Positions 1-9,631 of a DNA stretch of 9,631 nt are shown here, piece after piece (within the stretch, counting starts at the first letter, position 1; every line of letters begins with the position of its first letter). Below the pieces are notes generated by a model. It worked only from the letters and a program-made list of their open reading frames with translations. It was not told where the DNA came from and ran no database searches. Where the stretch lies: IMG/VR virus record IMGVR_UViG_2778261515_000017, positions 1-9,631 of that record; one strand, 5' to 3'. The stretch is from a virus (taxonomy: Duplodnaviria; Heunggongvirae; Uroviricota; Caudoviricetes). The position numbers and the translations under genes were made by a program.

Positions 1-1257
1 GTGCTTACCGATACAAAATTAAAAAACCTCAAGCCGCAGGACAAACTGTACAAAGTCTCCGATCGTGACGGGCTGTATGTAGCTGTGCTTACGTCAGGTA
101 CGGTCTCATTTCGCTATGACTACCGTATCAACGGTCGCCGCGAAACACTGGTAATCGGGCAGTATGGGCGTGACGGTATCAGCCTGGCAGAAGCGCGGGA
201 AGAACTGATTGCTGCAAAGAAGCTGCTTAAAGCAGGCCAGTCACCGGCTGCGGCTAAACGTGACGGTATCAAAAAGATTCGTGGTGCCGAGACGTTTGCG
301 GTACATACCGACAGTTATATGAAACACGTCATCCTGGCTGACAGTACCCGCGCAATGAAACAGGCGGTGATCGACCGTGACATACTTCCGGTTCTTGGCA
401 ACAAAATGATGGCTGAAATTACCACATCGATGGTTCGTGATTTATGTGACCGGATTGTCGAACGCGGTGGCCGGGCAACAGCAGTACAGGCCAGGGAGAT
501 CATCAGCAGCGTATACCGTCACGCCAATGACCGTGGTCATGGTTTGTTTAATCCTGCGGCTGACATTAAACCTTCGTCTATCGCCATATTTAAACCACGA
601 GAGCGAACACTGACACCAGAAGAAATTGGTCTGTTCTTCCGTATGCTGGATGCCATTGGTGCTATGGGCACTATGAAAATGGCTTTAAAGCTGGTGCTTA
701 TCACTATGGTTCGTAAAGGCGAATTCACCAATGCAACGTGGGATGAAATAGATTTTAAAAAATGGACATGGACAATTCCTTCAGACCGCATGAAGGGAAG
801 TCGGGCGCACGTTATTTACCTGCCTAAACAGGCACAGGATATATTAATCGGGTTGCAGATGTGCGCTGGTGGAAGTGAATATCTGGTTCCTGGTCGTTAC
901 AATTTCCGGAAGCCATTATCTAATGCCGCGCTGAACTCTCTGATCGACAGAACGGTGAAAATAATAAATGAAGATGGTGAGCATATTCAGGACTTCACTG
1001 TACATGATATGCGCCGTACAGCCAGTACGTTGTTGCATGAGGCTGGTTATCCTTCAGACTGGATTGAAAAGGCTCTGGCACATGAGCAGAAAGGTGTGCG
1101 CGCCGTATATAACAAAGCGGAATACGCCAGACAGCGCGCCTACATGTTGCAGCAGTGGGCAGATATGATTGATTCCTGGATTAACGGGGAGCATACGGAT
1201 CTGATTCCGTTCTCCCCGTCGAAGTTTGAGAGGTGGATGGAAGGCAGTAATAAATAA
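1..1257 (+). CDS. int: Phage tyrosine integrase (P4-type, DUF4102-like N-terminal arm-binding domain plus catalytic domain); GTG start at position 1, so the CDS may begin at or just upstream of the window edge
   Basis: 418-aa ORF. N-terminus MLTDTKLKNLKP...GLYVAV...FRYDYR matches the conserved start of P4-family integrases. C-terminal HDMRRTAS...LAHEQKGVRAVYNKAEY matches the catalytic H-x-x-R ... Y region of tyrosine recombinases. Identification is from motif memory, not a search. Confidence 0.85.
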   Translation: MLTDTKLKNLKPQDKLYKVSDRDGLYVAVLTSGTVSFRYDYRINGRRETLVIGQYGRDGISLAEAREELIAAKKLLKAGQSPAAAKRDGIKKIRGAETFAVHTDSYMKHVILADSTRAMKQAVIDRDILPVLGNKMMAEITTSMVRDLCDRIVERGGRATAVQAREIISSVYRHANDRGHGLFNPAADIKPSSIAIFKPRERTLTPEEIGLFFRMLDAIGAMGTMKMALKLVLITMVRKGEFTNATWDEIDFKKWTWTIPSDRMKGSRAHVIYLPKQAQDILIGLQMCAGGSEYLVPGRYNFRKPLSNAALNSLIDRTVKIINEDGEHIQDFTVHDMRRTASTLLHEAGYPSDWIEKALAHEQKGVRAVYNKAEYARQRAYMLQQWADMIDSWINGEHTDLIPFSPSKFERWMEGSNK

Positions 1258-1259
1258 TT

Positions 1260-1919
1260 CTATCCTTCCTGGACTTTGGTAAGCGTCAGATTTCCGCAGA
1301 ACACTGCGCCGGTGTCGATGTACATCTGGTTTGCATACACCAGTGGGTGATGTGCTGGCGTATGACCGAAGATGAACAAATCGGCACCGGTTATCTCCGA
1401 GACAATACCGTCCTGCGCGCCGCTAACCCGCTCACGATTCCATATCACCATTTCTTCCGGTACTGGCTTATCGAATGCGTATTCGTTGTGCGGGTAGTCT
1501 GCGTGGCAGATGACGACCTTCTTATTGCCGGTAACCAGTTCGATAATCATCGGGAGGTTGGTAATCTTTGGCAGAAGGTATTTGAGTTTCACATCCTGCT
1601 CAGAATCAAGTTGGTGCCACCATCCACCGCCGTTTGACATCCAATGTCCGAAACTTCCGCCGTTGACCAGTGCATCCAGCATCATCTGCTCATGGTTGCC
1701 ACGAACAGCTCGGAACCACGGCATAGTAATCAAATCCAGGCATTCGACGTTTTCAGCGCCGCGGTCAACAAGGTCACCAACGGAAATAAGCAAATCGCGC
1801 GCCGGGTCGAATGAAACTTTGTCGAGTTCGTTCATCAGCAGCGTGTAGCACCCATGCAGATCGCCGACGACGAAGATATTGCACCAGTCAGCGCCATTGA
1901 TGCGTTGATATAGGTTCAT
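1260..1919 (-). CDS. Ser/Thr protein phosphatase, lambda PPase (NinI)-like metallophosphoesterase
   Basis: Translation from the internal ATG ([26 protein letters not shown]...GDLVDRG...GNHE...FIFGHTP...) carries the calcineurin-like GDxHG/GDxxDRG/GNHE motifs and is near-collinear with lambda PPase as I recall it. SD GGGAG 8 nt upstream of the ATG at 1919. The 40-codon upstream extension of the track ORF overlaps the methylase gene and is rejected. Confidence 0.85.
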
Positions 1920-2566
1920 GCTACACGCTCCCGCCCCTGGTTGTCTGTTGGTGACAGCGGAGCATTGCTGAATGCATTTGTTAATCCGCCAATATCCAAC
2001 GCGTATCCAGGATGTAGTTGCACTGCCGGGTCTTCGCACTGATTACCCCAAACATCGAAGCCATGAGACGACTGGCGGGCGAACAGTTCAATGCGAGAAA
2101 CATCGCCTAACAATTGCACAAGTTTTTCACGAACGATATCTGGTTTTCTTGAATGCTCAAGCCGCGGTGCGGTAAATGACTGAACGATCCCTGCATTAAT
2201 GCGCGTAGGTAGTTTTCCCTTTACCGCAAACAGGCAATCTTCACTATTGGCGCGAGTCATGTGTCCCATACCCATAACCAGTTTATCTGGTTGTCGGCTA
2301 CCACATTTTATCCACGTGAAGCCCTTCATCGTCATCAGACGAAATCCCCAGGCTTCAACAACTTTTAGTGCTTCGAGTGGTTGTGTTGGCACCCACCACA
2401 TGGCCAACAGACAGTTTTCAGCGGTCAAATCCCACACAGGAAGGCGGCAGATATCCAGCACACTCATAACAGGATATTTAAAGCCGGCACCGCGATTACC
2501 ATCTGCGGCTTTGTCCCGGTATACCCAGGGTGGATCTGCATAGATTAGTGTGTATTTCTTAGTCAT
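1916..2566 (-). CDS. MT-A70-family N6-adenine DNA methyltransferase (DPPW motif)
   Basis: [14 protein letters not shown]...; the DPPW catalytic motif is characteristic of the MT-A70 family. ATG at 2566 preceded by a G-rich SD; the GTG at 2578 is an alternative start. Its TGA stop overlaps the phosphatase ATG (ATGA). Confidence 0.75.
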
Positions 2567-2858
2567 AAACCACCCCACAACATCCTATGCCGCTATAGTC
2601 GCCACGGCGAAGGCCGTTACCTTTTGTGATACATTGGTCCCTGCGAACCGCGATCCTTGCACGCTCAACATCACCAGAAGCAACATCCATACACTGAAGC
2701 CAAAGGTGAGCGGCAATGCGGAACTGCCCTTTTTTCTCTCTTTCAATCGCGCGTTTTTCGATCTCTATCGCCGCAGGAGTAACGGCGACAATCTTTGACG
2801 GACTGCGCATTGAAACCTTGTTCATGTGATATTTTTCAAGTCGGCTTAACTTTCTCAC
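2559..2858 (-). CDS. ANR-family-like small protein (putative small regulator); start ambiguous (GTG 2858 with SD GAGAGGG, or ATG 2825 without clear SD)
   Basis: 99-aa ORF. Central ...GQFRIAAHLWLQCMDVA... resembles the conserved core of small prophage proteins annotated as ANR family, from memory. Overlaps the methylase start by 8 nt. Confidence 0.45.
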   Translation of the reverse strand: MRKLSRLEKYHMNKVSMRSPSKIVAVTPAAIEIEKRAIEREKKGQFRIAAHLWLQCMDVASGDVERARIAVRRDQCITKGNGLRRGDYSGIGCCGVVYD

Positions 2859-2967
2859 TTAATCCAACCCTCTCTGAAAATTAATGCCAGCAGATAAAGC
2901 CATGCTGAAACAGAGGCCAGGAATAAGTACCATCCTGACCATTTGCTCCAGTGCCTTAGCAGCGCAC

Positions 2968-3216
2968 TCATGCAGCGTTGCTCACAGGACGATATACACG
3001 TTGCTGAACAGGAGGCTTTTTACCTTGGAACTCTGCCGGGCTTGCTGCCTGACGTTCATCAAGCCAACGCTCAACTTCGTCACGGTTCCATGCGCAGCGT
3101 TTGTCAGTGATATACCAGCGTTTAGGAAATTCCCCTGCGCGCTCCATACGGTCGATAGTGCTCCATGACAGTGGCACCACCGCCAGGAGTTCCTTCTTAC
3201 CTAATGCACCTTTCAT
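2968..3216 (-). CDS. AlpA-family HTH DNA-binding protein (MerR-like prophage regulator / candidate excisionase)
   Basis: 82 aa. LLAVVPLSWSTIDRMERAGEFPKRWYITDKRCAWNRDEVERWLDER fits the AlpA/Xis-type pattern (S-x-ST-I-x-R ... G-x-FP ... W ... EV-x-WL). SD GAGG 5 nt upstream of ATG 3216. Confidence 0.7.
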   Translation of the reverse strand: MKGALGKKELLAVVPLSWSTIDRMERAGEFPKRWYITDKRCAWNRDEVERWLDERQAASPAEFQGKKPPVQQRVYRPVSNAA

Positions 3217-3265
3217 AAATACCTCTCTTGGTTGCAGTGCGGCGCGCGTGGCGCCGCGGTGGTGG

Positions 3266-4207
3266 TTACATAGATGTTTCGTTTAATTCTTCCCGACGAA
3301 CGCTGTAAACGTCGGTGGCTTTTGCCAGCAGTTCGTCATCATCTGAAAGTTTTTGTGCAATGTATTTGTAAGCCTTATCCAGTTCGGAGACAGTGCTGTA
3401 ATTCATCGCTGCGCTGGTAAAGGCCATCAGCATTTCTTCTGGATCACGGCTATCCGCTTTACGCGTTTGCTCATCAGGCTTTTTCACTGTTTTAGCGTTG
3501 ATCAGACTATTAATTCCCGCAGCCGTAGTTGTTTGCGGAGTAATGTCTCGCTCAACGCGCGGTGCCGTTTCCTGTAATTCGTCAGGTGTATAGACGCCCA
3601 TGATTACGTCAGGACAGTGCAAGCGAGACCAGCGTTTTGTCGCAAGGTATGCGAGTTGTTGTTTCGGATCGCTGGCCCAAAGTGTGGAGTTTCTTACCTG
3701 TGCCTGAGACAGCATTAACTCGAGCACTCGAGGTTGATCCTCTCCCTTCATGGTTGCCCATACGCGAACACCGCAGCCTTCTTCGTCTTTTATAGTCCAG
3801 CCTGGTGCGATATACGGATTGCCGTTTTTGGATGTTTTCTCAACAAACTTACCGATCACGCGTTCCCACGGCCCGAACCACTCGTAGTTGATGCGATCTT
3901 TTGTTGGCGACATTGTTGAGATAACTGCGTTTACTAATTGGGCTTCATAACCTAGCGTGCCGTTCACAACATGGGTTTTCTGAGCCACGGCAAACGGGTT
4001 CATTCCCCACTGCGCAGCCTGCATTGCCACGGCCATGCAATCAGCTGGTTTCCCGGCGAGGTGCGCCGGTACCGTTACGCGGCTTTGCGCCATTACCTCG
4101 GCGAATTTCATCAGTTGGTTCAAGCCGTCTGGGCTGAAAATAGTTGCAGCAGTGCCAGCGATTGCTGTGTCTACTGGTGCGTTGATGTTTGCGATGTTGT
4201 TGCTCAT
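3266..4207 (-). CDS. recT: RecT/Redbeta-family single-strand annealing protein
   Basis: 313 aa. Shares an ERDITP segment with lambda Bet as I recall it, and sits immediately downstream of an exonuclease gene with a 4-nt ATGA start/stop overlap, the typical exo-SSAP pair. The family call has not been checked by search. Confidence 0.72.
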   Translation of the reverse strand: MSNNIANINAPVDTAIAGTAATIFSPDGLNQLMKFAEVMAQSRVTVPAHLAGKPADCMAVAMQAAQWGMNPFAVAQKTHVVNGTLGYEAQLVNAVISTMSPTKDRINYEWFGPWERVIGKFVEKTSKNGNPYIAPGWTIKDEEGCGVRVWATMKGEDQPRVLELMLSQAQVRNSTLWASDPKQQLAYLATKRWSRLHCPDVIMGVYTPDELQETAPRVERDITPQTTTAAGINSLINAKTVKKPDEQTRKADSRDPEEMLMAFTSAAMNYSTVSELDKAYKYIAQKLSDDDELLAKATDVYSVRREELNETSM

Positions 4208-5025
4208 ATGTACATATCCTGTTTACGTGCCCAGTCAGGGCGTTTAATAATTTCCACGCCACCCCATTCATCATTGATGCGGCATTCGTGATAGGTATTC
4301 AGATCCCGGCGGAACAGAGCGTGCCCGGTATCGACATCCTTCGCATCCAGCTCGAACACGCGTACCGGATACCGACCACAATCAATGCTTTCGCTCACGG
4401 CAAGAAAGAAAAAACCATGCGGCTGACCAGTAACCCTCATTGCGCCTTCACGGTACATTGCGTCCTGCACGTGGTAGCGGAATTCCTCGATGTGGCGAGC
4501 AAAACGATCCATATCTGCAACCTTTTTCACGTCGACGATTACGTTGTGCTCGTTCAGCCATTTGTCTGGACGAATTCGGCACAACTCACCCGTCTCTTCA
4601 TCGTTCCAGTACATTGATGCTTCGCAGTAACCAGGTGCTTCCAGCATCCAGCGTGCCGCCGGGTGAGCCATTGCGCTATCACGCATCAGCTCCAGTTTTC
4701 GCCACTGCTCTGCATCAAGTACCGAAATCCCCATATCCGCTACATCACGAATAAATGCCTCTTCGTCAGCTTTACCTTGTTTTGTCCGACGATCGAATTT
4801 CGGTGAAACGATGAAGCGTTTGTCAAACTCTCTAGGTTCCAGAAGCAGACAGTGCAGAGCAGTACCCATATCCAGTGCAGACTTCTTCTCTTCGTCTTCC
4901 GGAGCAGCCTTCACCCATTTCAGAAGGGCAGGGTTCTTAGCCACCATATCTAGCTGCGACTTACTCACGCCGTCACCGGCGTGGTAGTCCTCGTTGCTGA
5001 TATCGAAATAAATTCCCGGATTCAT
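4204..5025 (-). CDS. RecE-like PD-(D/E)XK exonuclease (nuclease domain only, DUF3799-like)
   Basis: 273 aa. N-terminal GIYFDISNEDYHAGDGVSKSQL resembles the start of the RecE catalytic domain. ...IRPDKW... and ...VIVDVKKV... fit D ... (D/E)xK nuclease motifs. SD GAGGG 7 nt upstream. ATGA overlaps with both neighbouring genes. Confidence 0.7.
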   Translation of the reverse strand: MNPGIYFDISNEDYHAGDGVSKSQLDMVAKNPALLKWVKAAPEDEEKKSALDMGTALHCLLLEPREFDKRFIVSPKFDRRTKQGKADEEAFIRDVADMGISVLDAEQWRKLELMRDSAMAHPAARWMLEAPGYCEASMYWNDEETGELCRIRPDKWLNEHNVIVDVKKVADMDRFARHIEEFRYHVQDAMYREGAMRVTGQPHGFFFLAVSESIDCGRYPVRVFELDAKDVDTGHALFRRDLNTYHECRINDEWGGVEIIKRPDWARKQDMYI

Positions 5026-5321
5026 GCCGCGTCCCTCTGCCCATCAATCTGATCAGCCAGATCCCAGCGGGCGATAATTGCCATTGCCTCGCGCCGGTAG
5101 GCATCCATTAGTTCTTCGAACTCAGGGCTGTCTTTAGCGGCCTCCAGTACTTCCTGGCGAACGCCTTTAACTGTTACAACGTCGAAAGTTGATGCCAGTT
5201 GATGAAGCCGGATACTCTCAATCAGTTCAACTTGTCGGTCATATAGCTGTTCTGACAGGCGGTAGTCCTTGTCGAATGCCAGCATGATTTTTTGAAGATT
5301 TTTCTGCTGATTAACGTTCAT
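5022..5321 (-). CDS. Hypothetical protein (99 aa), unknown function, second gene of the pL-type operon
   Basis: ORF with a strong SD (GGGAGG) 7 nt upstream of ATG 5321 (MNVNQQKNLQ...). Its stop overlaps the exonuclease start (ATGA). No recognisable motif. Confidence 0.55.
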   Translation of the reverse strand: MNVNQQKNLQKIMLAFDKDYRLSEQLYDRQVELIESIRLHQLASTFDVVTVKGVRQEVLEAAKDSPEFEELMDAYRREAMAIIARWDLADQIDGQRDAA

Positions 5322-5323
5322 TA

Positions 5324-5476
5324 TCAGCCCTCCCATATCTCGTTATCGTTGGCCACATCGCGAGCTTCTTTGCTGACGAAAGCCCACTTAATGCCTTCCT
5401 GTAAGGTGCGGAACTTCCAGCTCATGAATCCGCATGCAGTAACGCAGTACCAACCGTTGATGATTTTCCACTGCAT
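5324..5476 (-). CDS. Small ORF (50 aa, Trp/Cys-rich), first ORF downstream of the pL-type promoter; candidate Kil-like or small regulatory peptide
   Basis: ATG 5476 with SD GAGGT 8 nt upstream; translation MQWKIINGWYCVTACGFMSWKFRTLQEGIKWAFVSKEARDVANDNEIWEG. TGA stop lies 2 nt before the next ATG. Below the ORF-track length cutoff; supported only by SD and operon context. Confidence 0.35.
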   Translation of the reverse strand: MQWKIINGWYCVTACGFMSWKFRTLQEGIKWAFVSKEARDVANDNEIWEG

Positions 5477-5495
5477 AACTTGTTACCTCGGTCTG

Positions 5496-5572
5496 TTACC
5501 GTTGAGGTAATAATTATGCGTATATGGTTTGATGTCAATAGATATGAGTTAAAAAAATTACCCGTTAGGTAA
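5496..5572 (-). promoter_or_regulatory. pL-type promoter flanked by two operator palindromes (OL region)
   Basis: Operators TTACCGTTGAGGTAA (5496-5510) and TTACCCGTTAGGTAA (5558-5572), centres 62 bp apart. On the - strand, a perfect -35 TTGACA (complement of 5533-5538), 17-nt spacer, -10 AATTAT (complement of 5510-5515) whose last base is the first base of the downstream operator. Predicted TSS near 5503. Confidence 0.55.
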
Positions 5573-5582
5573 TCGAATAGGC

Positions 5583-5609
5583 AATAAAAAAGCCGCCATA
5601 AGGCGGCTT
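5583..5609 (-). terminator. Rho-independent terminator downstream of the repressor gene (tImm-like)
   Basis: 8-bp GC-rich stem AAGCCGCC/GGCGGCTT (5590-5597 with 5602-5609), 4-nt loop, followed on the - strand by a U-tract (complement of the A-run 5583-5589). No T-tract follows on the + strand, so it is unidirectional. Confidence 0.7.
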
Positions 5610-5629
5610 ACTTACTGAAAAATATGGTT

Positions 5630-6214
5630 TTATTGTTTGTTTTTTTCGTTCTGGTTGATGACAAATTCAATGTAACTTTCGATCTTTGCTTTCTCGGTTT
5701 CGGGTAACAATGCGTAGCGCGAGCGGTCATAGTTGATAGTCGCGGGGTCGTGCGGGTGAATCAGTAATTCATAGCCGTGACGCCCGAATGCGGATGCAAC
5801 ATTCTCCAGGGTGGAAATGGAAACGCTAACCTCATTGTTTAACAGGCGGCTGATTGTCACCTGGGCGACGCCGGATGCGCGGTGAAGTTTTCCCTGAGTT
5901 GAAAGGTCGCGGCTTTCGCTCATCCAGCGTTCCAGGTTGTGAGCCGCCAGCTGACCAATGTCGCTTGGGCCGACAGGCTGAAAACCTTCCTGAGAAAGCG
6001 AGCGATCGATATCAAGCCAGTTACGGGGTTTATTGGCGGCAGCTTCAATTTTTCGCGCAACCTGGTCGCCGATAACCTTCTTGCCAAGAGCCCAGCGGTT
6101 TACCAGATTTGCCTGAGTTCCAAGTTTTTCTGCCATCCGCGTCTGAACACCATTGAATTCACGGTCGATCAAGTCGTTGAGATTTTGCCTGCGGACGTCC
6201 TGGATACTTTTCAT
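5630..6214 (-). CDS. Prophage repressor at the cI position: dual-HTH protein (CII-like N-terminal HTH plus XRE-type HTH), with no LexA/S24 peptidase domain evident
   Basis: 194 aa. ...TRMAEKLGTQANLVNRWA... resembles the lambda CII HTH; ...GKLHRASGVAQVTISRLLNNEVSVSISTLENVASAFG... is XRE-like. Divergent from the Cro-like gene across an operator-rich region and followed by a strong terminator, which is the lambda immunity-region topology. Weak or absent SD, possibly leaderless like cI from pRM. Confidence 0.65.
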   Translation of the reverse strand: MKSIQDVRRQNLNDLIDREFNGVQTRMAEKLGTQANLVNRWALGKKVIGDQVARKIEAAANKPRNWLDIDRSLSQEGFQPVGPSDIGQLAAHNLERWMSESRDLSTQGKLHRASGVAQVTISRLLNNEVSVSISTLENVASAFGRHGYELLIHPHDPATINYDRSRYALLPETEKAKIESYIEFVINQNEKNKQ

Positions 6215-6269
6215 TTTCTGGAAAATCGCCTCATATATGAATCAGTAGATGATTCAATTTAAAGCAATA

Positions 6270-6343
6270 TTACCCAACAGGTAAATGCACCCCATAGGTA
6301 ACTATCCTTGATTTTTGTTACCTTATGGGTGAATATTTATTAT
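6270..6343. promoter_or_regulatory. Divergent OR-type operator region between the repressor and Cro-like genes, with a pR-type promoter
   Basis: Operators TTACCCAACAGGTAA (6270-6284), degenerate GCACCCCATAGGTAA (6287-6301) and TTACCTTATGGGTGA (6318-6332). Rightward promoter candidates: -35 TTGTTA (6315-6320), 17 nt, -10 TATTAT (6338-6343); or -35 TTGATT (6308-6313), 17 nt, -10 GAATAT (6331-6336). Either overlaps the 6318-6332 operator. No convincing leftward (pRM-type) hexamers found. Confidence 0.5.
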
Positions 6344-6368
6344 CTGAAATAAATATCAGGCAATAGCT

Positions 6369-6599
6369 ATGAGCGATAACGGACATTTCGATTTCAAAAA
6401 GCACTGGCTTGCACTTACTCCGGATGAGCGTGAAGCCTTCGCACAGGAAGCCGGAACGACGAGTCACTATATCCATACTCACTTAACAGGTAAGCGCAAA
6501 ATGCCAGGTAAAGTATTGATGAATGGGCTTTTTAAAGCCTGTAAAACAAGACAATGGCTGCGCTCAAAAGCAGAACTGGCATACTTCTTCTACTCATGA
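6369..6599 (+). CDS. Cro-like small HTH regulator (first gene of the rightward operon)
   Basis: 76 aa. HTH-like segment FAQEAGTTSHYIHTHLTGKRKMPGKVLMNGLFKAC. Divergent from the repressor gene; its promoter overlaps an operator palindrome. Confidence 0.55.
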   Translation: MSDNGHFDFKKHWLALTPDEREAFAQEAGTTSHYIHTHLTGKRKMPGKVLMNGLFKACKTRQWLRSKAELAYFFYS

Positions 6600-6620
6600 T
6601 ATCCAGCCACAACCCTCTGT

Positions 6621-6645
6621 AGACCGCCATCCGGCGGTCTTTTCA
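6621..6645 (+). terminator. Rho-independent terminator after the Cro-like gene (tR1-like)
   Basis: Stem AGACCGCC (6621-6628) / GGCGGTCT (6633-6640), loop ATCC, followed by TTTTC. Confidence 0.5.
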
Positions 6646-6749
6646 TATCTATTCGTACCTCAAAGGTAATAAAAAACCAAATATGGTTGATCTTTTTTTT
6701 GTGTCAGCACAAAATAACCGTAATCCCAATACTAATAACAGGGCTTACC

Positions 6750-6950
6750 ATGGAAATCATTACACGTATTGATGCCGCAAAGCGCGGACTTAAACGCTAC
6801 TACACCGGAAAACCATGTAAGCACGGACATGACAGTGAACGCTGGGTTTACAACGGACACTGTGTTGAGTGCACCATGGAATCAAACCGTCGCATCAGGG
6901 CAGAGATTAAGCAGATCATGATTAATTCCTCCCCACAACACTCAAGCTGA
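6750..6950 (+). CDS. Small Cys/His-rich putative zinc-binding protein (66 aa) at the cII position
   Basis: ATG 6750 with SD CAGGG; MEIITRIDAAKRGLKRYYTGKPCKHGHDSERWVYNGHCVEC... with a C-x-H-x-H ... C-x-x-C pattern. The track ORF starting at 6687 uses a TTG and is rejected as an N-terminal extension. Confidence 0.5.
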   Translation: MEIITRIDAAKRGLKRYYTGKPCKHGHDSERWVYNGHCVECTMESNRRIRAEIKQIMINSSPQHSS

Positions 6951-6965
6951 TAGCGGAGATTAATC

Positions 6966-7799
6966 ATGAGCAGACATGCAACAGATTGGGCCTGGGAGAC
7001 AGATCCAGGTAGCTCGTCATTAAAGCTCATACTGCTCTCGATGGCTGACAGAGCCGATGAATATAACCTCTGCTATCCCAGCATAGAACGCCTAGTTAAA
7101 GACACTTGCCTGAATAAAAAAACCGTACAGGCCGGGCTTATATCGCTCATGAAAATGGGGCTTATTTCAGATACCGGAGAGAGAAAGGGAGCGACGAAAA
7201 GAGTGCGGGTTTTCTCTCTTAATATAACCAAAAACGGGAACATTAAAGGCAACCGGGAAGGGGGTAACGATCCCAAAAACGGTAATGTTACCGAAAACGG
7301 GAATATACCCAAAAACGGGATGTTGAATGATCCCAAAAACGGGATGTTGAATGATCCCAAAAACGGGATCCAGAACCAGTCATATAACCAGTCATTTAAC
7401 CAAGAGAGGGAGAGCAGGACAAAAATCGGGGATTCCGTGCCCCATGACCCCGGCGCAAACAACGCCGTGATGAATAACTTTGTTCCTCCAGGTGGGCCAG
7501 GGCAATTAGGCAAATTTGTCATGCATGAACAATGGCAGCCATCAGATGACTTTCTTCGGAAAAGCTCATTGCAGGGAATCTACCTGGGCAGTCTGCCAAC
7601 GGCACAGGAACTTGCAGAGTTCAGAATTTACTGGATGGCTGAGGGTAAGGCATACCATCAGGCGCAGTGGGAGCAGAAGCTGGCAAGGCGCATCCAGTTC
7701 TGTAGACAGAAATCAGGTGAAGTCAGAAAGAGCCTTGACTGGCATAACACTGACTGGATAGATGAGGTGTGGGATGAAATCAACTCCAGAACTTCTTAA
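6966..7799 (+). CDS. Replication initiation protein (O-like): N-terminal winged HTH, central iteron-encoded repeat linker, C-terminal DnaT-like domain
   Basis: 277 aa. N-terminus LKLILLSMADRADEYNLCYPSIERLVKDTCLNKKTVQAGLISLMKMGLI is typical of phage replication-initiator HTH domains. The central NDPKNGML repeats are encoded by the DNA iterons. Immediately upstream of the P homolog. SD GGAG 7 nt upstream. Confidence 0.75.
   Translation: MSRHATDWAWETDPGSSSLKLILLSMADRADEYNLCYPSIERLVKDTCLNKKTVQAGLISLMKMGLISDTGERKGATKRVRVFSLNITKNGNIKGNREGGNDPKNGNVTENGNIPKNGMLNDPKNGMLNDPKNGIQNQSYNQSFNQERESRTKIGDSVPHDPGANNAVMNNFVPPGGPGQLGKFVMHEQWQPSDDFLRKSSLQGIYLGSLPTAQELAEFRIYWMAEGKAYHQAQWEQKLARRIQFCRQKSGEVRKSLDWHNTDWIDEVWDEINSRTS
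7228..7405. repeat. Origin-of-replication iterons inside the O-like gene, plus downstream short direct repeats
   Basis: Six copies of the core CC(A/G)AAAACGG at about 7229, 7273, 7291, 7308, 7332 and 7356. The last three are spaced exactly 24 bp apart and form the palindrome ATCCC-AAAAAC-GGGAT, resembling lambda ori iterons. Followed by AACCAGTCAT direct repeats at 7374-7383 and 7386-7395. Four GATC sites fall within 7269-7370. Confidence 0.65.
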
Positions 7800-8556
7800 T
7801 GAGTACTATCGCTTTCGTGGTGGGCATGACCACTCGACGGTGGTTGCTTCTGCTGACGATGAAAGGGCAAAGAAGGAGCAGGTTGCAAGAATTTTCAACG
7901 AAATGTTTGTCCAGTTGCAGGCTGCATTTCCAGGCAGCATCGCTGCTATCAGCGAACAGGGAAAGCTAAACGAATTTCGAAAACAATGGATGCTTGCGTT
8001 TCTGGAGAATGGGATCACTACAATGGAACAGGTTAACGCTGGTATGCGCCACGCCCGCGCCAGTGAATCTCCGTTCTGGCCGTCGCCTGGGCAATTCATC
8101 AAGTGGTGCAAAGACAGCAAGATGGTTCTTGGCGTCACCATTGACGATGTGATGGCGGAGTTTCATCGGTACAGCAAGGAAAAAAGTTTATATCCTGGTG
8201 GTCCAGAAAGATTCCCGTGGCGACATCCGGTTATGTACTGGGTTGTATGTGATACCCGCCGCGCAATGTATCAGCGCCAGCTTAGCGAGATTGAGGTTGA
8301 GAAACACGCGCGCAGGCTGCTCGATGATTGGGCGAAAAAGGTGGCTTCCGGACAGCAGATACCCGATCCGGTGATCAGCATACAGGCAAAGCCAGAACCC
8401 ATGAGTACGCCTCCGGACACAGGGAGAGACGTTTACCATCCACCAGGGCGAAGTTTCGGGTGCATGCCTAACGCCGCCACCCTGGGGGGAATAACACCGG
8501 CGCAGTGGCTGATGGAGGAATACAGGCGGGGAAAGGCGGCAGGATTTATCAAGTAA
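7774..8556 (+). CDS. P: Replication protein P homolog (DnaB helicase loader)
   Basis: Contains ...FLENGITTMEQVNAGMR...FWPSPGQF..., near-identical to the lambda P segment FRENGITTMEQVNAGMR...FLPSPGQF as I recall it. ATG 7774 with SD GAGG; 26-nt overlap with the end of the O-like gene. Confidence 0.85.
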   Translation: MKSTPELLNEYYRFRGGHDHSTVVASADDERAKKEQVARIFNEMFVQLQAAFPGSIAAISEQGKLNEFRKQWMLAFLENGITTMEQVNAGMRHARASESPFWPSPGQFIKWCKDSKMVLGVTIDDVMAEFHRYSKEKSLYPGGPERFPWRHPVMYWVVCDTRRAMYQRQLSEIEVEKHARRLLDDWAKKVASGQQIPDPVISIQAKPEPMSTPPDTGRDVYHPPGRSFGCMPNAATLGGITPAQWLMEEYRRGKAAGFIK

Positions 8557-8560
8557 TACC

Positions 8561-8581
8561 AGCGCGATAGCGCATTTTTTT
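8561..8581 (+). terminator. Weak terminator-like hairpin plus T-run just after the P stop codon
   Basis: Short stem AGCGC / GCGCA around loop GATA, then a T-run 8575-8581. The stem is only about 5 bp, so this is marginal. Confidence 0.3.
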
Positions 8582-8593
8582 ACGTCTCAATAA

Positions 8594-8670
8594 TTACCTA
8601 TTGGGTAATAAAATATTCTAAACTCTATTGATTTCGTGTCTTATGTGGTTTTTAATTACCTCAAGGGTAA
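8594..8670 (+). promoter_or_regulatory. Third operator-flanked promoter (P3) upstream of the DUF1064-like gene; same geometry as the pL-type cassette
   Basis: Operators TTACCTATTGGGTAA (8594-8608) and TTACCTCAAGGGTAA (8656-8670), centres 62 bp apart. -35 TTGATT (8628-8633), 17-nt spacer, -10 TTTAAT (8651-8656) ending on the first T of the downstream operator. Gap from upstream operator to -35 is 19 nt, as in the pL-type cassette. Confidence 0.5.
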
Positions 8671-8673
8671 ATC

Positions 8674-9021
8674 ATGAGAAAACAGATACAGGCTCTTGGT
8701 CGACTCAAAACAGGCCAGATGAACAAAACAGAATCTGCGTATTGCCAGCACCTTGAGCAGCGTAAACGCGCAGGGGAAATCGCCTGGTATCGATTCGAGG
8801 GTATCAAGCTGCGGTTAGCCGACAACACGTTCTATACGCCCGATTTTGCTGTGATGCTCGCCACCGGAGAGATGGAACTGCACGAAGTGAAAGGGGGATT
8901 CTGGACCGACGACGCCAGGGTGAAAACCAAAGTAGCCGCAGATCAGTATCCGTTCCGAATCATCGGGGTAACGGTTAAACCAAAGAAAGCAGGTGGTGGC
9001 TGGAACATCGAAGAATTCTGA
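8674..9021 (+). CDS. DUF1064-family phage protein (possible PD-(D/E)XK-like fold)
   Basis: 115 aa. ...NKTESAYCQHLEQRKRAGEIAWYRFEGIKLRL...YTPDF...ELHEVKG... matches the DUF1064 signature as I recall it. Its start codon lies 4 nt downstream of an operator palindrome. Confidence 0.6.
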   Translation: MRKQIQALGRLKTGQMNKTESAYCQHLEQRKRAGEIAWYRFEGIKLRLADNTFYTPDFAVMLATGEMELHEVKGGFWTDDARVKTKVAADQYPFRIIGVTVKPKKAGGGWNIEEF

Positions 9022-9082
9022 ATCGACGATCTTTTTAGTTATCAATGTAATCAATAAGTTATGTGGATAAGCGAGGGTAAAG

Positions 9083-9631
9083 ATGGAAAGTATGGCTGAA
9101 GGTACGATCAAAGATTTAGTGGCATCAGGACATGCGTTAGCTGACGACATGACAGGTGCACCATCCGTGCTTGTTCGCTGTTTGGCAACGCAACTGGAAG
9201 TACAACTGGTGCGTGCTAATGCGCTGGCCGAAGACCGCATCACCACCGAACACTGTCAGGCGCTGGCGCTGGAGAACGACACCGCGCGTCAGGTGCAGGT
9301 GTTTGAAGCCGCCTGTCAGTCGGGATGGGGCGGTAAACCGGAAGTACAGACCATTCGTCGTCTGGTGACCGAAAGTGAAGTGGCGGTGGCGGGGAACAGT
9401 AAATTCCGCTTCGTGGGGGCTGATGCCTTCTCGCCAGACGAACTGCGCACCGATTTGTTCAGCGATGACGGGGACGGTTATGTCGACCGCGTGGCGCTCG
9501 ATGCCGCCCTGCTGGAAAAACTCCAGGCTGTCGCTGAACACCTTCGGGAAGCCGAAGGCTGGGAATGGTGCGCCGGACGCATGGAGCCTGTCGGTGAGTG
9601 CCGTGAGGATGCCGGAACATACCGCTGTCTG
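9083..9631 (+). CDS. Unknown acidic protein, 3'-truncated by the window edge (at least 183 codons with no stop); GC-rich relative to the rest of the window
   Basis: ATG 9083 with SD GAGGG 5 nt upstream; the frame stays open to the window end. Translation MESMAEGTIKDLVASGHALADD... is protein-like, whereas the overlapping minus-strand track ORFs look like GC-driven artefacts. No recognisable family. Confidence 0.45.
   Translation, partial: MESMAEGTIKDLVASGHALADDMTGAPSVLVRCLATQLEVQLVRANALAEDRITTEHCQALALENDTARQVQVFEAACQSGWGGKPEVQTIRRLVTESEVAVAGNSKFRFVGADAFSPDELRTDLFSDDGDGYVDRVALDAALLEKLQAVAEHLREAEGWEWCAGRMEPVGECREDAGTYRCL

Follow-up and report, generated by a model that had tools for sequence, protein, structure and literature searches.

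A conserved 50-residue gene behind the putative pL-type promoter of epsilon15/phiV10-type prophages

Directly behind a pL-type promoter on the minus strand of the 9,631-nucleotide stretch of viral DNA analyzed here (IMG/VR record IMGVR_UViG_2778261515_000017, positions 1 to 9,631; hereafter the window) lies a 50-amino-acid (50-aa) open reading frame (ORF) that is almost certainly a real, translated gene. It belongs to the family of epsilon15 gp37, and we use the name gp37 for the gene and its product throughout. The best reading overall is that gp37 is probably a gene of the leftward early operon that encodes a small binding protein of the immunity and early-control core. It is an already catalogued hypothetical gene of a well-sequenced phage genus, and what it does is the new question. 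For the window itself this is an ordinary finding, a correctly spotted gene already annotated as hypothetical, the interest of which would rise if the gene represented a new kind of early regulator. Prophages of the epsilon15/phiV10 type occur in about 1 in 10 complete E. coli genomes and are common also in Salmonella, Klebsiella, Enterobacter, and Citrobacter. Their lysis–lysogeny switch has been studied as a model distinct from that of lambda, and in it an antirepressor under SOS control disassembles the double-HTH repressor Rep. The gene that this switch would free first is gp37, which is conserved beyond the repressor itself, and establishing its function, whether as regulator, host-takeover factor, or toxin, would supply a missing piece of the switch model. 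If it proved to be a true host inhibitor, gp37 would further be a 50-residue tool.

The window corresponds to the integrase-to-replication part of an epsilon15/phiV10-type prophage (genus Uetakevirus). Along the minus strand, the gene for a double-HTH repressor is followed by a terminator, the promoter with its operators, gp37, a gene of 99 aa, and then genes for a PD-(D/E)XK exonuclease, RecT, AlpA, a PerC-like protein, and an MT-A70 methylase. The opposite flank of the repressor gene holds a divergent pR region, a 76-aa gene in the cro position, and DnaT-like and P-like replication genes. The features around gp37 on which the argument draws are the following.

5022 to 5321, minus strand: next operon gene, 99 aa, epsilon15 gp36 family, PHROG 856, function unknown; starts 2 nt past the gp37 stop
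5324 to 5476, minus strand: 50-aa protein-coding gene (gp37), epsilon15 gp37 / phiV10 p39 family, PHROG 898, RefSeq WP_001198620.1
5484 to 5488, minus strand: Shine-Dalgarno sequence GAGGT, 7 nt before the gp37 ATG, overlapping a GGTAA operator half-site at 5486-5482
5496 to 5511: O2, putative operator for the repressor; minus-strand sequence ATTACCTCAACGGTAA; overlaps both the -10 hexamer and the inferred transcription start
5510 to 5538, minus strand: pL-type sigma-70 promoter, -35 TTGACA at 5538-5533, 17-nt spacer, -10 AATTAT at 5515-5510
5558 to 5573: O1, putative operator for the repressor; minus-strand sequence ATTACCTAACGGGTAA; lies upstream of the -35 hexamer, 62 bp from O2
5590 to 5609, minus strand: intrinsic terminator of the rep transcript, with a stem of 8 bp (6 G-C pairs) and a T-run, separating rep from pL
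5630 to 6214, minus strand: double-HTH prophage repressor Rep, SPC32H/epsilon15 type, Pfam HTH_3, PHROG 8

The ORF runs on the minus strand from an ATG at 5476-5474 to a TGA at 5326-5324, and its 50-aa product is MQWKIINGWYCVTACGFMSWKFRTLQEGIKWAFVSKEARDVANDNEIWEG. The stop codon is followed by the two letters TA and then by the ATG (5321) of the gp36-family gene, so that the arrangement given in a preliminary description of this DNA (a 50-aa minus-strand ORF starting at 5476 behind a GAGGT Shine-Dalgarno sequence and stopping 2 nt ahead of the next ATG) can be read directly from the sequence. Because the window holds 116 ORFs of at least 30 aa, the existence of a 50-codon ORF is uninformative on its own, and the question has to be decided by comparison. 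Phage records, IMG/VR, genomes in GTDB, and assemblies together supplied about 180 gp37 loci, from which 64 distinct DNA versions of the gene were extracted.

The preliminary description had proposed that the frame be checked for conservation in related prophages, and it is conserved: all 64 distinct homologous DNA sequences keep it open at 48-50 aa, and dN/dS (Nei-Gojobori, 64 sequences) is 0.20 for the whole ORF, 0.045 for codons 1-25, and 0.40 from codon 26 to the end. Variable columns of the alignment number 15, 19, and 37 at the first, second, and third codon positions, respectively, and residues that do not vary in the protein are nonetheless encoded by varied synonymous codons (four each for T13, A14, and G8, and five for L25). 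Synonymous substitutions are by a wide margin the more numerous. Of the five alternative frames (two sense, three antisense), four have dN/dS above 1 and are broken by stop codons in most of their sequences; the fifth is an antisense frame considered at the end. The contrast between the two halves of the gene comes from the nonsynonymous sites, for which pN is 0.03 in codons 1-25 versus 0.23 in codons 26 to the end, with pS at 0.45 in both. Since the synonymous sites diverge equally in both halves, the conservation of the N-terminal part reflects selection on the peptide and not on an overlapping DNA or RNA element. Judged by these substitution patterns, the comparison shows the amino acid sequence of gp37 to be under strong purifying selection, residues 1-25 especially.

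The sequence upstream of gp37 has the anatomy of a regulated early promoter. The pL-type promoter matches the sigma-70 consensus at 10 of 12 positions and is the top sigma-70-like site in the entire window; TATTGAC and the -10 region are kept across relatives from E. coli, Salmonella, Klebsiella, and Enterobacter. It is reasonable to place the start of transcription near 5503, which would give a leader of about 27 nt. Although these leaders are otherwise divergent, GAGG is found 5-16 nt ahead of the gp37 ATG in 80 of 85 distinct contexts. The two full operators O1 and O2 form one 16-nt repeat family, with a TTACC-N6-GGTAA palindrome in all relatives aligned, and the GGTAA half-site that overlaps the Shine-Dalgarno sequence is visible in an inverted repeat (5480-5489 / 5504-5513). 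Equivalent sites are annotated as repressor binding sites in the epsilon15 record, and the rep terminator, which is conserved in the alignment of relatives, is annotated as such in phiV10. Two types of promoter region can be distinguished: the phiV10 type, to which the window belongs, has the leader of about 27 nt and two full operators, whereas in the epsilon15 and Klebsiella types the region is about 60 nt longer and includes a hairpin and one more full operator, the third.

The Rep protein of the window is identical to the repressors of phiV10 and ZX5, and overexpression of the ZX5 repressor (ORF21) abolished transcription of the lytic genes (PMC9782041). Given that the operators flank or overlap the promoter, these data suggest that the promoter is the analogue of pL under direct repressor control. 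The assignment of gp37 as the first gene after a pL-type promoter is borne out by this arrangement, in which it heads what would be a repressor-controlled leftward early operon with operators flanking and overlapping its promoter.

The ORF had been described as unannotated, which does not hold, because the gene is present in RefSeq (WP_001198620.1) and in phiV10, epsilon15, TL-2011b, and other phages, and has a full-length match in PHROG 898. The RefSeq entry, named “hypothetical protein,” is the coding sequence for this ORF in E. coli UMNK88; epsilon15 gp37 (NP_848245.1) and phiV10 p39 (YP_512294.1) carry the same name. The PHROG profile (“unknown function”) matches residues 1-50 over profile positions 1-50 of 50 with an E-value of 1.9e-38. 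The protein of the window is 100% identical to those of phiV10, TL-2011b, and ZX5 and 79% identical to epsilon15 gp37, and the exact 50-aa sequence occurs on at least 1,000 contigs, labeled hypothetical in every source. At the DNA level, E. coli UMNK88, in which the element adjoins guaA, matches the window at 100% identity over 701 bases surrounding the ORF, and the same stretch is found in 559 of 5,426 complete E. coli genomes (~10%); the integration site reported for ZX5 is the 3′ end of guaA (PMC9782041).

An exhaustive HMM search of 1.8 billion representatives limits the family (proteins of 41-93 aa) to prophages of Enterobacterales, in the genera Escherichia, Salmonella, Klebsiella, Enterobacter, Citrobacter, Kluyvera, Scandinavium, Raoultella, Hafnia, Serratia, and Erwinia. 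Neither this search nor a word-index search tied gp37 to any named family. Pfam (to an E-value of 10) and NCBIfam and PADLOC (to an E-value of 1) gave no match, no sequence relative was present among PDB chains, and a search of the accessible literature returned nothing on the protein.

The composition of gp37 points to a soluble 5.9-kDa protein without a membrane segment, too small to be an enzyme. Its GRAVY value is -0.29, no 19-residue window has a hydropathy above 0.57, and there is no signal peptide; a reading of gp37 as a membrane peptide was discarded on this hydropathy. The earlier characterization as Trp/Cys-rich is right for tryptophan (five of 50 residues) and not for cysteine, of which there are only two, C11 and C15. 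Both are substituted in the members from Hafnia and Serratia and in other distant homologues, which excludes an obligatory metal site or disulfide formed by this pair. Family-wide, M1 and T13 are invariant, and W3, G8, V12, G16, S19, K21, F22, W31, F33, and A38 are at least 90% conserved. The conserved positions are mostly core or turn residues (G8, G16, V12, F22, W31, F33), with K21 as the only conserved charged residue, and they therefore give little information on a binding surface.

An AlphaFold2 model built from 35 sequences places strands at residues 2-6, 9-14, and 18-22 and a helix at 25-49 (beta-beta-beta-alpha), with a pLDDT of 76; confidence is moderate, as the five models span pLDDT 53-76. 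A single-helix model obtained from 13 close sequences (pLDDT 61) was of low confidence, came from a shallow alignment, and was discarded. The fold is thus predicted to be a three-stranded antiparallel sheet packed on a C-terminal helix, with an aromatic sheet (W3, W9, W20) that appears to be nearly invariant. Foldseek returned weak and functionally mixed matches to this model, including AP2/integrase arm-binding domains, the HicB N-domain, dsRBD, HPF, and UPF0339/DUF2188; in PDB and BFVD none reached an E-value of 0.001, and sequence identities were 2-13%. The likeness to these three-strand-plus-helix modules (AP2, HicB-N, dsRBD, HPF, UPF0339/DUF2188) is too generic to establish membership or function, and the predicted topology names no partner.

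At 50 residues, gp37 is too small for catalysis and would act by binding through its nearly invariant aromatic sheet; that it is a non-enzymatic binding protein we regard as probable. Its action would most likely be stoichiometric. The invariant sheet may contact a partner equally invariant throughout the Enterobacterales and these phages, and the C-terminal tail would be the variable, exchangeable part. Two main types of tail are seen, an acidic one (...DVANDNEIW..) and one ending in ...KTEMDMGVSK. No co-variation was seen between tail type and Rep type, and tails have been exchanged between Rep types.

gp37 is closely associated with the repressor. Searches with gp37 and with Rep each returned 36 phage records, with equal counts per genus and identical accession lists. 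A Rep-like ORF is located upstream of gp37 in 176 of the 177 loci that have enough upstream DNA, the exception being a locus with a 70-aa insertion between the two. The synteny (first ORF after the repressor and operators, on the same strand) holds in epsilon15, phiV10, Tyrion, and Klebsiella and Enterobacter phages, and the position behind rep and pL is also kept in prophages of Serratia and Hafnia and in a distant metagenome contig (P0038), despite a different next gene. In epsilon15 and phiV10, as in the window, gp37 is placed between the operators and gp36. None of the relatives lacks Rep, gp37, gp39, gp40, or AlpA, and the exonuclease, RecT, and the replication genes are swapped among them. 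The gene that follows gp37 varies as well: its product has 89-104 aa in 54 distinct contexts and 300-355 aa in 30, and in one it is a 550-aa exonuclease fusion. Between the window and epsilon15, gp37 is 79% identical and Rep only 42%.

Since gp37 is never found apart from rep and pL, has neighbors that are swapped, and is conserved above the repressor, we place it in the core immunity/early-control module, where it would act in early regulation or as a commitment factor. It could target the transcription machinery, nascent RNA, or another component of the switch. The gene would be silent in the lysogen, and its product would be the first to appear on infection or once the antirepressor inactivates Rep; the leftward early operon that it heads would comprise gp37, gp36, the PD-(D/E)XK exonuclease, RecT, AlpA, and further genes. 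We favor a core regulatory role over that of a dispensable host-killing accessory gene. Taken by itself, a regulatory or switch-linked function is a tentative proposal with slightly less than an even chance of being correct, and a toxin or inhibitor acting on the host is possible but doubtful. The universal presence and fixed position of gp37 could simply reflect close physical linkage to the immunity region and not functional coupling.

The alternative that fares best, while still rather unlikely, is that gp37 is a host-directed takeover factor that inhibits a conserved host protein by binding it directly. The target might belong to cell division (FtsZ is the one for Kil, KilR, and DicB-like action), or it might be a protease, a nuclease, or a protein of host defence. 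A target conserved among hosts would fit the near-invariant N-terminal half of gp37 across phages of E. coli, Salmonella, Klebsiella, Enterobacter, and Citrobacter. Further, gp37 is a small protein of the early left operon encoded upstream of RecET-type genes, like kil of lambda and kilR of Rac. Kil and KilR are FtsZ-directed division inhibitors, and the products of kil (47 aa) and kilR (73 aa) share with gp37 their small size, a leftward early operon with recombination genes, and repression in the lysogen. They differ in that neither is promoter-proximal in lambda or Rac, both lie in the mosaic accessory part of the operon, and no similarity to gp37 is detectable. Accessory takeover genes are usually mosaic, whereas gp37 is universal and positionally fixed beside rep.

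Sequence comparison gives this alternative no help. Searches by hhalign and HMM against lambda Kil, cIII, N, Ral, Orf28, and Ea10 and against Rac KilR, YdaE, YdaF, YdaG, RacC, RcbA, and RalR were all negative, as were those of PADLOC, Pfam, and NCBIfam. For instance, lambda Kil scored an hhalign probability of 0.2% and 0.1 bits with the HMM, KilR gave no alignment even with filters off, and lambda cIII, the FtsH inhibitor, reached 0.6% over 3 columns. The conserved core of cIII is an amphipathic helix, whereas the conserved part of gp37 is a predicted beta-sheet. The suggestion that gp37 is a host-directed factor such as a Kil-like division inhibitor, or else a regulator, finds no support for its Kil-like part in these comparisons (hhalign probabilities below 1%, scores of about 0 bits), although a Kil-like role may nonetheless apply and the broader wording may hold. 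The preliminary description was a sound catch, with an interpretation by analogy that was put too confidently.

Closer in position to gp37 are YdaG (44 aa) and YdaF (51 aa, DUF1391) of Rac, uncharacterized small ORFs directly after racR in the leftward operon, which can be considered its positional analogues. With the gp37-family HMM, YdaF reaches 0.5 bits and YdaG -1.7 bits, and Pfam DUF1391 misses gp37, giving no evidence of homology. By eye, a K-x-F-K/R-T ... W motif can be seen in both YdaF and gp37 where strand 3 meets the helix.

One specific version of an early-control role, and an improbable one, is that gp37 does the work of lambda N from the equivalent position, letting transcription read through terminators or pause hairpins by an action on RNA polymerase or by using its aromatic sheet to bind nascent RNA in the manner of cold-shock proteins. 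It has the position in its favor: as with N, gp37 comes first behind a pL that the repressor controls and that follows the repressor gene with its terminator, and there is a terminator after the first pR gene too. Some 20 nt past the cro-position gene gp39 there is a GC-rich hairpin that has a T-tract (6621-6640); it is kept in 99 of 116 distinct contexts, with a stem sequence that varies among lineages, and a second GC-rich hairpin between recT and alpA (at about 3244-3262) is annotated in the epsilon15 record as a pausing stem-loop. The conservation of the hairpin after gp39 implies that these phages possess a tR1-like element, the read-through of which calls for an explanation.

However, the components by which N works are missing from gp37 and its leader. 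Residues 1-22 hold K4 and K21 and no arginine, leaving no arginine-rich motif; boxA-like sequences do not exceed chance (two one-mismatch matches versus 6.3 expected); the only motifs common to the pL and pR transcribed regions are the operator palindromes, with no pair resembling nutL and nutR; and the 5′ leader in the phiV10 type is just ~27 nt. N is a disordered protein of 107 aa, whereas gp37 has 50 aa and is predicted to be folded. No boxA or boxB accompanies gp37, the two proteins have no sequence relationship (hhalign probability 0.3%), and the fold matches of gp37 are not significant.

The core regulatory role that we favor may also take a more specific form, which we judge unlikely: gp37 would be the founder of a so far unrecognized class of early phage regulators, a folded 50-aa beta-3-alpha protein obligatorily tied to the SPC32H/epsilon15-type switch of double-HTH repressor and antirepressor, and would serve as a substitute for N or as a lytic lock-in. 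As an N substitute, it might dispense with nut sites and an arginine-rich motif and still promote read-through of the two conserved hairpins, the one past gp39 and the one ahead of alpA; as a lock-in, it might act on a component of the switch.

It is very improbable that the gp37 peptide is functionless, with the ORF serving only to load ribosomes (for Rho protection or translation coupling) or with its conservation due to an overlapping DNA or RNA element. The operators do lie directly upstream, and the gp37 stop is juxtaposed to the next start, which overlaps it by 4 nt or is a few nucleotides away (nearly all contexts have either the 4-nt overlap or a spacer of 2 nt). Against this, synonymous sites that diverge freely (pS 0.45) beside amino acids 1-25 that are nearly fixed (pN 0.03) are the opposite of what a nucleotide element or leader ORF should produce, the length of the ORF is steady at 48-50 aa, and no Rfam family matches anywhere in the window. 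Constraint at the nucleotide level, whether from an operator or an RNA, was rejected as the source of the N-terminal conservation on the equal pS of the two halves and the lack of an Rfam match.

Least probable of all, and rejected on its dN/dS and its unstable length and start, is that the true gene is an antisense ORF (5292-5510, plus strand, 72 aa) of which the 50-aa frame would be the shadow: it is open in 63 of the 64 sequences over the shared 132 nt with a dN/dS of 0.31, below 1, but this is twice the 0.16 that the sense frame gives there, and its length ranges from 36 to 135 aa among relatives, with no conserved start codon or end. Some appearance of constraint is to be expected of this frame, because its third codon positions coincide with those of the sense frame. 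Such a gene would moreover oppose pL and run into the promoter and operators, and nearly all the annotated records compared, RefSeq included, call the sense gene. One phage record, that of Tyrion, carries the antisense ORF (BI095_gp39) instead, so the expectation that ORF callers would miss a gene as short as gp37 is justified for some records, whereas most do call it.

Between the 50-aa gene and the gene at the gp36 position, 30 of the 85 distinct contexts, including loci of Serratia and Hafnia among others, carry an additional ORF of 300-355 aa (for example, 4150-5196 in the related locus L176 and 3249-4229 in L179), which shows that linkage of the 50-aa gene is to the repressor gene rep and the pL-type promoter, not to gp36. 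A Pfam scan of the inserted ORF of L176, the sole example scanned, gave no match, and for L179 none is on record. The features of the left operon considered here are the following.

Features of the left operon (window positions, strand)
5292-5510, plus: 72-aa shadow ORF antisense to the 50-aa gene; counterpart at 2905-3117 in the Enterobacter phage Tyrion locus
5022-5321, minus: 99-aa gene (PHROG 856), immediately 5' of the genes for the exonuclease and RecT
~3244-3262, minus: GC-rich hairpin GCGGCGC-CACGC-GCGCCGC between recT and alpA, without a T-tract
1260-1922, minus: calcineurin-like metallophosphatase gene between the integrase and MT-A70 methylase genes

The leader of the 50-aa gene differs among relatives, being ~60 nt longer in those of the epsilon15 and Klebsiella type than in the phiV10 type (alignment; related loci L002, L005, and L170-L174). 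In the longer form there is a small hairpin (e.g., CCCACC-ACC-GGGTGG), and the Shine-Dalgarno sequence directly follows a third full operator, whereas the window, which is of the phiV10 type, has only a half-site before the Shine-Dalgarno sequence. In the Tyrion record, the antisense shadow ORF is called as gene BI095_gp39 and the true 50-aa gene goes without annotation; BI095_gp39 is probably a mis-annotation.

Operator-like sequences also occur in the right control region.

Features of the right control region and replication genes (window positions)
6269-6284: full operator ATTACCCAACAGGTAA, the one full operator in the rep/pR divergent region (6268-6334)
6285-6302 and 6317-6334: 18-nt inverted pair in the same divergent region
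6621-6640, plus: GC-rich hairpin AGACCGCC-ATCC-GGCGGTCT, then TTTCATAT, 21 nt past the point where the 76-aa cro-position gene stops
6640-6671, plus: mirrored copy of parts of pL, immediately 3' of the putative terminator at 6621-6640
6966-7799, plus: DnaT-like replication gene with short internal DNA repeats at ~7280-7360

Additional half-sites (GGTAAC/GTTACC) in the inverted pair surround the -35 hexamer of pR. The mirrored copy joins TCATATCTATT, which matches 5537-5547, to the operator-like TACCTCAAAGGTAA, which matches O2 (5496-5514); it may serve as a fourth site for the repressor or as a second promoter region directed rightward, and through it the left and right control regions might be able to loop together. 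The hairpin preceding it resembles a tR1-type terminator placed in front of the replication genes. In 99 of 116 distinct contexts (the window and related loci) a hairpin is retained at this position behind the cro-position gene, with a stem sequence that varies from lineage to lineage. Within the DnaT-like gene, near-identical short repeats (TGGGATCATTCAACATCCCGTTTTTGGG, twice) encode a reiterated NDPKNGMLNDPKNG peptide, and these may be iteron-like elements inside an initiator gene.

Farther along the left operon, the 99-aa gene had no match in Pfam or NCBIfam. One Hafnia relative has at this position a non-homologous 94-aa gene with a precomputed Pfam flag, "GamL," that our own scan did not reproduce; the slot may be a home of nuclease-inhibitor-type genes. 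The equivalent of the recT-alpA hairpin is annotated in epsilon15 as a "transcriptional pausing" stem-loop. In E. coli UMNK88, a DUF1382 gene occupies the place of the metallophosphatase gene. The window therefore does not derive from UMNK88 itself, and the operon is mosaic at its integrase-methylase end.

Plasmid records (H93-H102) also contain homologues of the 50-aa gene. Some lie on circular E. coli "plasmids" of 41 kb, probably phage genomes in excised or episomal form; others lie on large conjugative Klebsiella plasmids, where they presumably sit in prophages inserted into those plasmids.
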